Source: Eledone cirrhosa (lineage: Eukaryota). From it: a stretch of 64,000 nucleotides of DNA. The DNA lies in the NCBI GenBank assembly GCA_964016885.1, contig OZ024757.1, positions 40,362,001-40,426,000 on the forward strand, read 5' to 3'. Below the pieces are notes generated by a model. It was given only the letters and a program-made list of their open reading frames with translations. It was not told the DNA's origin and searched no databases. Shown here piece after piece: positions 1-56,420 of this stretch; the first letter of the stretch is position 1; each line of letters begins with the position of its first letter. Made by a program: the position numbers and the translations under genes.

Positions 1-163
1 CCACGTCGGCCATAACGCACCAGAATACGCAATACTTACGATAGAAGAGTGGGTAATAGGAAAAGAGTCAGGACCCCCACGGCTGAGCTCCGGCCGTTTC
101 GACAGCTAGTTCGGATCTAGCTGTCAAAATGACCGAAGCTCAGACGTCGGGGTCCTGACTCTT
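1..163 (+). repeat. Dispersed repeat ending in a ~100-bp GC-rich hairpin (63-163); 5' part runs off the window
   Basis: aagagtcaggacccc...gacagctag ttcgga tctagctgtc...ggggtcctgactctt is self-complementary. The flank matches 5205-5336 and the reverse complement of 40536-40725. Confidence 0.8.
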
Positions 164-6062: not shown

Positions 6063-6227
6063 ATATATGGAGTAAGAAACAGTAAATCGTGTGTCTAATA
6101 TTACGAGGGTTGAAGAACCATATTTGTTTGAAATATTTAACCATGAAGCAGACAGGGTTTCAGTATGAGTCAACTCTAACTTTCATTTATATATATATAT
6201 TTATGAATATATATATATATATATTTA

Positions 6228-6292
<65 letters not shown>

Positions 6293-6341
6293 GAATATAT
6301 ATATATATATATTTATGAATATATATATATATATATATTTA

Positions 6342-6411
<70 letters not shown>

Positions 6412-6557
6412 TATATATATATATATATATATATGAATATAGACATAGAATATTCGAAAATATTCTGTATGTTTATAATAAACATTTTGAAGACCTAATC
6501 GCTATAGAATAGAATACGTCACGTATTACAATTAGATTCTCGATAAAAGCAAGGGAA

Positions 6558-6600
6558 GTAATCTACGCGTTTCATTCTTATTAGAAATCATCAGGACTAC
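6558..6600 (-). ncRNA. Minimal type I hammerhead ribozyme (mirror copy)
   Basis: Reverse complement of 6996-7038. Confidence 0.85.
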
Positions 6601-6995
6601 ATATCCAGTGCTTTTATCGAGAATGACACAGCTAGAGACTTATAGAATACTTAGCTGTGTACAGGAACTGGTTTGAAAGAGCGGTTGCCGGTCCGGCAGA
6701 AATTAGAAATTGGAATAAATGCTCTGAAATAGCGATATATATGTGAATATAGACATAGAATATTCGAAAATATTCTGTATGTTTATAATAAACATTCAAA
6801 ATGTTTATTATAAACATACAGAATATTTTCGAATATTCTATGTCTATATTCACATATATATCGCTATTTCAGAGCATTTATTCCAATTTCTAATTTCTGC
6901 CGGACCGGCAACCGCTCTTTCAAACCAGTTCCTGTACACAGCTAAGTATTCTATAAGTCTCTAGCTGTGTCATTCTCGATAAAAGCACTGGATAT

Positions 6996-7038
6996 GTAGT
7001 CCTGATGATTTCTAATAAGAATGAAACGCGTAGATTAC
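6996..7038 (+). ncRNA. Minimal type I hammerhead ribozyme
   Basis: gtagtc-CTGATGA-t ttct aata agaa t-GAAA-cgcg-TA-gattac; palindromic ACGCGT stem III; predicted cleavage after A7032. Confidence 0.88.
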
Positions 7039-7681
7039 TTCCCTTGCTTTTATCGAGAATCTAATTGTAATACGTGACGTATTCTATTCTATAGCGATTA
7101 GGTCTTCAAAATGTTTATTATAAACATACAGAATATTTTCGAATATTCTATGTCTATATTCACATATATATCGCTATTTCAGAGCATTTATATATATATA
7201 TATTTATATATATATATAGAGAGAGAGAGAAAGTGAAGGAGGGAGAGAGAGAGGGAGAGAGAGAGAGAGAGAAAGAGATTTATGAATGCATGTATGTATG
7301 TATGTATACATACATACATACACATATATAATCAGATCTGCTACACATCATAAAACTTATAATCAATAAAAGTCAACGATATAGAGAAAAAAAGATTGTT
7401 GTCATCTTCCAATTTTCCTGTATTTCGTTATTGGAAATTATAATTTCTTCTATTTCATTGAAAAATACAATCAAAATAATAAAGAAGCGCGGGGAAGGGG
7501 GGGGGGGGGGGGCTGGATGAGAGGGAGGTTTAGAAATTAAAGAAATCTTCGTTTATATTGAAGGAGCTGTTATCTTAACCAATGAACGAGATATGGGAAA
7601 ACAGTTTGACATATTGAAGATTAAAAAACACACAAAAACTAATGTAAACATTCCGGTTTTATTACAAAAGAAATGTATTGT

Positions 7682-7715
<34 letters not shown>

Positions 7716-7717
<2 letters not shown>

Positions 7718-7984
7718 GTTTCTGAATTTGTTTTGCAAGATTCTTTATCTGAAAACGAGTGTTGAAACCGATATTGTTATACTTTGGGAGGGTCATGTTG
7801 CCAATAAGAAACACACGCACCAGCTGCATTTACTTCAATTGATTATAATAAATTTATAAATTTAGGAATTTATAAATTTCCAGTTGGTTGGTTCCACAAC
7901 CAGATGGTTGTTTATATATTGTCAAAGTTCTTTCGTCACACATTATGTTACCTCTTCTGTGACTGGGGATTCTTTTCTTTGTTT

Positions 7985-7988
<4 letters not shown>
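7716..7988 (+). repeat. Dispersed repeat inserted in (TA)n ('tgttatactttgggagggtcat' family)
   Basis: Colinear with 37586-37917; shorter relatives at 14468-14590, 5912-5978 (-), 55948-56035 and 56115-56203 (-). Confidence 0.8.
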
Positions 7989-8050
<62 letters not shown>

Positions 8051-33648: not shown

Positions 33649-33840
33649 CTAAAGACATTTTTTCGAATTCCAAACCGCCCGTCCCCTCAATCTATCTTAT
33701 TTCTCATTCTTTCTTCTGATGAAGAACTAGCGTCCGAAACGCTAAGACCTTCTTCCTGCTATATCAAGCGTTAACCTAATATATCCATTCCACATACTGT
33801 ACCGATTGTGTTGTTATTGCTGTTTACCGTTTACATATAT
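33645..33840 (+). mobile_element. Penelope-like pLTR remnant with a degenerate minimal hammerhead (family B)
   Basis: ttCTGATGAa-gaac tagc gtcc-GAAAcgcTAaga...aagcgttaacctaat; homologous to 62345-62555 (-) and 63735-63860 (-). Confidence 0.65.
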
Positions 33841-37585: not shown

Positions 37586-37917
37586 TCGTTTCTGAATTTG
37601 TTTAGCAAGATTCTTTATCTGAAATCGTGTGTTGAAACCGATATTGTTATACTTTGGGAGGGTCATGTTGCCAATAAGAAACACACGCACCAGTTGCTTT
37701 CACTTCAATTTAATTTATTATATATTTATAAATTTACAAATTTATAAATTTCTGGTTGGTTGGTTGGTTCCACAACCAGATAGTTGTTTATATATATATA
37801 GTCATAGTTCTTTCGTCACACACTCTGTGACCTCTTCAGTGACTGGGGATTTCTTTCTTCGTTTCTGTGCCTTTCCTTTCTTCTATCCTACGACTATATA
37901 CATATATGTATCTAACA
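37586..37917 (+). repeat. Second long copy of the 7716-7988 repeat
   Basis: Shares the same start (tcgtttctgaatttgttt) directly after (TA)n. Confidence 0.8.
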
Positions 37918-56349: not shown

Positions 56350-56420
56350 TATTTTATCTGATGAGAACGCAGATATCATGCCATGATGATATTTGTTTTT
56401 GAAATGCGCATAATAAAATA
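56350..56420 (+). ncRNA. Type I hammerhead ribozyme motif (family A)
   Basis: tattttat-CTGATGA-gaac gcagatatcat..atgatatttgt tttt-GAAA-tgcgca-TA-ataaaata; 8-bp stem I, palindromic ATGCGCAT stem III. Confidence 0.85.

Follow-up and report, generated by a model that had tools for sequence, protein, structure and literature searches.

Outer ends of a young, non-coding hammerhead repeat family in Eledone cirrhosa point to mobilisation by PLE machinery

The locus at 6434-7191 of the window, by which we mean the whole 64,000-nt stretch of Eledone cirrhosa DNA that was analysed (GCA_964016885.1, contig OZ024757.1, positions 40,362,001 to 40,426,000), is a single insertion from a large family of hammerhead repeats that are non-coding and of the non-LTR retrozyme type. 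The family is very young, and the structure of its ends strongly indicates that it is mobilised by PLE machinery, a conclusion drawn from genomic sequence and held with considerable confidence. With less assurance we favour a fuller account, in which a PLE RT would start synthesis at each end of a cut (TA)n tract, with one unit-length RNA circle as its template. The size of the family can be read directly, as can its head-to-head layout, the fixed positions, about 30 nt apart, of its two kinds of 3′ end, each of which occurs once per insertion, its free and independent 5′ ends, its short-overlap junctions and the single haplotype found at each locus. Both the retrozyme class and the circle model are already published, and the family is a new member of that class.

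Table 1. Features of the locus and of its (TA)n flanks, in window positions unless a unit position is given
Feature	Position	Strand	Remarks
Left (TA)n target tract	6188..6433 (tract to 6434)		six short interruptions
Left arm	6434..6796	(-)	1.17 units, 5′ end at unit position 4
Left arm, short ('untailed') 3′ end	unit position 56-65		continues into (TA)n
Mirror hammerhead, left arm	6558..6600	(-)	
Head-to-head junction	6795..6799		TT overlap (2 nt, 6795-6796) and templated CAA
Right arm	6795..7191	(+)	1.28 units, 5′ end at unit position 309
Repeat unit	6797..7106	(+)	310 nt, dominant young subfamily, non-coding
16-bp stem enclosing the ribozyme	6972..7060 (6972-6987 with 7045-7060)	(+)	
Hammerhead motif, type I	6996..7038	(+)	from sequence; activity predicted
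Terminal redundancy	7105..7191	(+)	87 nt, identical to 6795-6881
Internal AC(AT)4 tract	7162..7171	(+)	unit 56-65, short 3′ end site
'Tail', right arm only	7163..7191	(+)	
Right arm, long ('tailed') 3′ end	unit position 83-85		family mode 89-91
Right (TA)n target tract	7189..7218		

The inverted arms of the locus (Table 1), 6434-6796 and 6800-7162, are complementary over 363 bp without a mismatch and can be extended to 372 bp (6425/7171) with one mismatch, inside TA, and the 87-nt direct repeat is 100% identical at a period of 310. The sequence-only reading had described both, together with the (TA)n setting that is indeed present on either flank, and its view of a very recent insertion of a unit of retrozyme size with a hammerhead is also supported. 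It had taken CAA (6797-6799) for a 3-nt loop between the arms; these bases occupy unit positions 1-3, and the loop is thus templated. Since each arm has one ribozyme, monomer release by double cleavage is impossible from this locus alone, which is an ordinary copy and probably a dead end. The interruptions of the left (TA)n tract resemble the last bases of the arm, a weak but possible trace of repeated priming; such stutter occurs at 2 of 78 short ends and at none of 79 long ends, which is not significant (the background was 1 of 249 other TA runs, counted with a regular expression that missed one of the two cases). Folded as a circle, the 310-nt unit has z = -4.2 against 100 shuffles. Rfam miRNA matches in the palindrome, all far below the gathering score, are by-products of the palindrome.

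In the hammerhead, as assigned from sequence, stem I is formed by 6996-7001 and 7033-7038, CUGAUGA lies at 7002-7008, stem II pairs 7009-7013 with 7018-7022 and has a U-U at its base, and GAAA lies at 7023-7026; stem III is weak, with a palindromic CGCG, and the cut is predicted at A7032/G7033. The 111-nt ribozyme region folds with z = -4.9, which none of 200 shuffles equals. An Rfam search of the whole window gave no gathering-level match, and the best hammerhead match, HH9, is weak (19.7 bits, E 0.049). Across 10 related sequences, young and old, the ribozyme stems and the 16-bp stem, drawn from the sequence of this locus, still pair in 88% of cells (slid controls pair in 40-50%), and 10 of 27 pairs have compensatory changes on both sides. 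The type I core and stems are found in the units of the family, with the Rfam match weak. Weak stem III and the stem II U-U would predict slow cleavage, which, given that stem III, would probably take place as a dimer. At L066 (3740-5614) the cut-site nucleotide is G (GUG) in 5 of 6 units and in both arms, a pattern that a self-cleaved circle does not easily yield and that could stem from later conversion or from a template that was edited or escaped cleavage.

The family is large. One 22-nt word of the 310-nt type has 18,203 exact matches in the 3.0-Gb assembly and a second word 15,314, with 0 for the control, giving about 18,000 units, about 5.6 Mb and, by rough scaling, 1,500-2,900 loci. 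The notion that the window haplotype is rare proved wrong, as the word counts show the 310-nt type to be dominant. A minor 312-nt subfamily is 95-97% identical to the window unit, and 614 exact matches to a core word are mostly of this minor type. Units are 310-312 nt long, tandem and low in GC, in arms of up to 20 units; at least two tandem ribozymes are present in many loci, and the window locus has one per strand. Because the first DNA search skips common words it returned the minor 312-nt subfamily, a biased sample. The 92 loci analysed are the window locus, 64 obtained via minor-type searches and 27 of the young type; young loci other than the window's all come from the first 115 Mb of contig C1, and 9 young loci were picked by one variant word. 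The count leaves out the segmental duplicate L084 and treats L122 and L123 as one. L083 and L084 (C1, ~470 kb apart) have a common junction and flanks and differing unit numbers per arm; they are a segmental duplication carrying one insertion, and unit number can therefore change after insertion or in assembly. Exact matches to the unit numbered 0 in metagenome contigs and 0 in viral contigs.

An older relative, ~65% identical to the unit and 91-94% identical between its own copies, is arranged in the same way, and none of its 30 loci examined has a linked ORF. More distant or older relatives were noted at L154-L183, L041:3270-3571, L086:8661-8972, L076:7012-7318 and L061:5379-5573; one of them gave 2,643 first-look candidates, and some have decayed ribozyme cores. 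Other repeats with hammerhead or hammerhead-like motifs were seen as well. An abundant one, at window 7716-7990 (+) and 37586-37866, is 78-96% alike between copies, recurs in L039, L050, L069, L081, L082, L088 and L123, and has hammerhead-like motifs, one decayed near 7750-7772 and a second at 37839 (-); in L079, L088 and L097 its start follows (TA)n beside family ends. Five further hammerhead-core motifs of different families are found at 33716 (+), 56358 (+), 62453 (-), 63098 (-) and 63593 (+), that at 56358 matching a motif ~1 kb behind Hydra-like ORFs in L051, L053 and L087. A second hammerhead tandem family, with a period of ~466 bp, is present at L081:410-2274 (+), L094:1852-2835, L057, L032, L078 and L090, with minus and plus copies within one locus.

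Head-to-head pairs account for 69 of the 92 loci (L052 was reassigned by eye), with 22 single-arm loci, one of two tandem pieces and none tail-to-tail. The outer ends follow a simple rule: a short end is matched with a long one in 68 of 69 pairs (67 by script and L088 by eye), two alike occur in none, and the remaining pair, L056, is eroded. The short end falls at unit 56-65, AC(AT)4, which we infer to be the first RT start site, and the long end about 30 nt further, at unit 89-91 in 46 of 79 cases; L049, L068 and L116 have atypical ends. Single arms have the short end in 12 of 22 loci and the long end in 10. With 142 of 157 ends entering TA, target-site duplication is unreadable in the family. 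Circular permutation of the copies, raised as a check on the earlier proposal, is seen at the 5′ ends, which vary, and fails at the 3′ ends, which are fixed. The accessible texts on PLE insertions describe a tail and an adjacent inverted 5′-truncated copy (PMC8557442, PMC3846280), and for an anole PLE the tail is the stretch between two internal RT start sites, the enzyme having cut and extended both target strands in vitro (PMC11167929); the origin of the inverted copies and of the one-sided tail is called undefined in PMC8557442. The family likewise has fixed 3′ ends with an optional tail, here of about 30 nt, and 5′ truncation with an inverted copy, and it is because of this end structure that PLE machinery is the probable agent of its mobility.

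The inner-end offset is uniform (KS p=0.68, n=67 measurable pairs), and 5 of 67 pairs lie within 10 nt where 4.5 are expected. There is a slight excess of offsets of up to 40 nt (23 of 67 pairs against an expected 17.5, p=0.08 pooled; older set 18 of 45, p=0.03) and a weak correlation between the lengths of the arms (rho 0.29, p=0.017). The short-ended arm is the longer one in 32 of 67 pairs, and 16 of 67 cannot be nested in either direction. Among the 67 junctions, 39 have a 1-6 nt overlap, 5 abut, 3 have a larger overlap and 20 have extra bases; L101 and L112 overlap by 16 nt via the unit's own 16-bp stem. An extra short inverted duplication (129 and 33 nt) at the junction of L096 (3837-4016) suggests repeated template switching. 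There is no pile-up of paired 5′ ends at the cut site (2 of 134 against 2.2 expected), and 4 of 22 single arms start at unit 242-248, just beyond the cut, a pattern noticed post hoc that hints at opened templates.

The likeliest partner is a (TA)n-targeting Hydra-type PLE which, judged by its sequence, is a candidate partner or ribozyme donor and no more. Its 758-aa frame in L202 has a C-terminal endonuclease, a DKT motif and a CxCX5C linker, along with a hammerhead and a (TA)n target; the Hydra-clade assignment comes from motifs read against the available text of PMC8557442, with RWR in place of RWK. Many 758-aa open frames occur among 119 scored matches, median identity is 98.4% (30 copies) and the ends lie in (TA)n. 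Copies were seen at L194-L223 (e.g. L202:1351-3624 (+)), with stumps arranged head-to-head. Pfam and PDB barely recognise the protein, which Atlas groups with HTH_animal and GIY-YIG proteins. Over the ribozyme core and stem II, the PLE and the unit agree at 26 of 28 bases, in a stretch where the older relatives differ. Apart from this 28-nt ribozyme core, no RT-start sequence common to the unit and the L202 PLE was found, and the RT-start region of the unit had no match in any coding PLE compared; the two ends of the PLE are about 70 nt apart, against about 30 in the unit family. A BLAST and profile search for a partner in ~1.5 Mb of flanks returned just non-coding older relatives and the ribozyme core. 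Copies attached to a coding PLE, which the sequence-only reading had named as evidence against itself, did not appear: among the matches listed for 92 loci of the family and 30 of its older relatives, which together sample it thinly, no ORF with RT and GIY-YIG is joined to the repeat. At L045:5143-5467 (-) an inverted Hydra-type PLE arm lies directly against the 5′ end of a family arm, for which nested insertion is as good an explanation as joint mobilisation, and further PLE families occur in the flanks of family loci.

The haplotypes bear on the template. In the young set (28 stretches from 27 loci, 196 full units) 36 variants are fixed through a locus, none is partial and 14 are singletons (0.02% per site). 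There are 16 haplotypes among the 25 young loci with a full unit, and both arms agree in 22 of 23 pairs, the exception being one base in a short arm. Genome-wide, a rare variant word is all-or-none: it fills three whole arrays, in which 9, 11 and 15 units in succession carry it through both arms, with 2 lone matches besides, and another, with 810 matches, gives whole arrays among the 100 listed. Strict privacy of variants was rejected, as two tested in non-nestable loci were both shared (810 and 37 matches). At the cut site, unit 234-237, no change was seen in 228 young units, nor any junction scar; in older units there are 4 scar events in 235, against ~0.9 expected. Partial variants do occur in the older 312-nt subfamily, where they make up 23 of 362 locus-variant cases and sometimes occupy adjacent units, which argues that local expansion, conversion or multimer templates act too. 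Since a new variant can take over a whole array only by way of one unit, a unit-length template is the simplest explanation, and this could be an RNA circle or a uniform multimer derived from one. Multi-lap RT of a circle is the route proposed for retrozymes, itself a proposal (also PMC7761336). For such lapping, as suggested for the window locus, the uniform haplotypes and the precise units across the cut site are indirect support, and the choice once posed between it and a PLE tail is not exclusive, the family having PLE tail ends and also the pattern to be expected of a unit-length template.

Several other origins of the inverted layout have to be weighed. A single cDNA could self-prime the inverted arm and end where its TA anneals to the target, as the earlier reading proposed and as has been suggested for PLE palindromes in the accessible text of PMC3846280. 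Such fold-back predicts inner ends close in phase and a short-ended arm that is never the longer; the uniform offsets and the many longer short-ended arms show that it is not the family rule, and the un-nestable pairs and the short ends that stand alone at single-arm loci count against it as well. L101 and L112 are joined via their own 16-bp stem, as fold-back would have it, while the stem at the window junction would be just 2 bp. Because the window arms nest, 5 nt out of phase, and have in common a private 72-nt word found nowhere else in the assembly, fold-back can still be entertained at this locus alone, where the near-symmetry also fits chance, in the tail of a flat distribution. Overall we consider fold-back improbable and two-ended priming quite probable. 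Palindromes are also a known class of artefact, and among the contigs listed none spans the centre of this one; a chimera of assembly or library is nonetheless extremely unlikely, given that the mirror ends at the element's own termini, that the two flanks are unlike each other and that 68 other loci follow the same end rule at different junction points. Finally, the unit might be the pseudo-LTR of a coding PLE and the loci its 5′-truncated stumps, since the ends obey PLE rules, the hammerhead core equals that of the coding PLE at 26 of 28 nt and, in the available text of bioRxiv 10.64898/2026.07.22.740005, Xenopus retrozymes match pLTRs. Arms that are pure multimers of up to 20 units, a family-linked ORF in 0 of 92 loci and 30 older relatives (in the matches listed, with a small share of the family read) and a family profile that finds nothing in the pLTR of the coding PLE make this very improbable.

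With two-ended PLE insertion retained, the template may still have been linear, a long transcript left uncleaved and made from an array that was uniform beforehand; this would also give uniform daughters, with new haplotypes coming from short insertions that later grew by unequal crossing-over. A local-amplification route has been proposed for retrozymes (Li et al. 2026, bioRxiv 10.64898/2026.07.22.740005), and in the same work only one of the 9 retrozymes from Xenopus cleaved; insertion in vitro could do without the hammerhead (PMC11167929); and the weak stem III and stem II U-U, features treated in PMC7229834, predict slow cleavage. The L066 cut-site change and the partial variants of older arrays also favour a linear template. 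The young arrays, however, with 14 singletons and no partial variant, give no sign of local expansion, their inverted arms carry one haplotype in nearly all pairs, and several haplotypes each reach 10-20 units per arm, whereas 5′-truncated linear copying only shortens arrays. We regard the linear template and its later growth together as unlikely, and a unit-length circular template as likely from the sequence pattern. A bolder reading would have each insertion record one RNA circle, lapped from two start sites by the halves of a PLE RT dimer, with circles that diversify as RNA, need no genomic source and behave as a viroid-like replicon able to reach other organisms. It is kept open by a window haplotype word with no other copy in the assembly, by the all-or-none haplotypes and by sequencing runs X4-X20, in which 17 further organisms contain 63-84% of the unit's words (window 6797-7191), a presence that may reflect carry-over, close kin or true spread. 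Among the listed runs containing the unit's words none is an RNA run, and run X23, with 0 reads in 1.9 Gb, does not serve as a test. X4 and X5, whose run kind is unspecified, yield one closed 340-nt contig each (310+30), with 2 differences; such contigs fit a low-level, carried-over collapsed tandem as well as a circle, and X1 fits genomic DNA of this species. We have withdrawn a reading of X1, X4 and X5 as the expressed circle, the contig variants being common genomic types of this assembly. The same data are explained equally well if a repeat of 18,000 copies was carried over and if a single assembly lacks some of the sources, and the replicon reading is improbable.

Under the account that we favour on balance, tandem arrays elsewhere would be transcribed, cut by their hammerheads (probably as a dimer) and closed by ligation into a circle of 310 nt. 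Both (TA)n strands would be cut by the RT-endonuclease of a PLE, which is probably dimeric; synthesis would start at unit ~90 from one DNA 3′ end and at the AU tract around 56-65 from the other, each RT would lap the template from less than 1 to 20 times and halt at a variable point, and the two cDNA ends would be joined by microhomology. At the window locus both RTs would have halted after ~1.2 laps, by chance 5 nt out of phase, leaving a near-perfect palindrome.

In LINE-1 twin priming, too, two primings give head-to-head segments with microhomology joins. It differs in its poly(A) end and in copying non-overlapping parts of a linear RNA, whereas the family has two fixed internal sites and repeated units. 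As far as the available texts go, endonuclease-bearing PLE insertions (PMC8557442, PMC3846280) and the anole Poseidon (PMC11167929) share with the family 5′ truncation, head-to-head inversion, a tail at one end (30-40 bp), AT-rich or (TA)n targets and an internal RT start. Unlike these PLEs, the family is without an ORF and both its arms are multimers of one unit; its one-tail rule is near strict (68/69), whereas with Poseidon both strands used both start sites in vitro (PMC11167929). Non-LTR retrozymes (PMC7229834; bioRxiv 10.64898/2026.07.22.740005) are described with a non-coding tandem unit of 150-450 bp and low GC, a type I hammerhead per unit, a self-paired fold and PLE co-occurrence, all as here. 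The family differs in that most of its loci are head-to-head with a one-sided tail in (TA)n, a matter on which the main texts are silent; it is known from genomic DNA alone, with circRNA and cleavage predicted, its unit matches no coding PLE pLTR found, and its young arrays look born whole rather than locally grown. By description, of the axolotl and newt satellite hammerheads HHR_Amex1 and HHR_Amex2, Amex1 likewise has a palindromic tetraloop on a minimal stem III, and Amex2 the U-U at the base of stem II that part of the family has; dimer cleavage is expected for the Amex hammerheads, as for the predicted activity here (PMC7229834). Chlamys MRC1 likewise comprises non-coding PLE dependants with multicopy head-to-tail insertions; according to the accessible part of PMC8557442, non-autonomous Chlamys members generally have the 3′ sequence of the autonomous family and most are without hammerheads, whereas our family has just the ribozyme core in common with a coding PLE. 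In the literature searched, with subscription journals mostly outside it, we found no report of PLE tail ends, head-to-head arms or all-or-none haplotypes for retrozymes; 'inverted' is absent from the main text of PMC7229834, and 'tail' and 'head-to' are absent from the available text of Li et al.

Retrozymes have been assumed to be mobile as circles copied by PLE RT, and in the texts available the support so far is co-occurrence and pLTR homology, not insertion anatomy. In the family, thousands of very young loci bear the marks of PLE insertion, tail and inversion alike, and the value of the result lies with the family and not with the window copy. That haplotypes are all-or-none favours arrays that arose whole, on a unit-length template, over local expansion. 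The near-strict pairing of a short end with a long one, while the inner ends are independent, suggests priming by both DNA ends, each at its own site, in place of fold-back. With a 310-nt RNA and a young, intact PLE ORF, one genome would supply a small, ready in vitro system.
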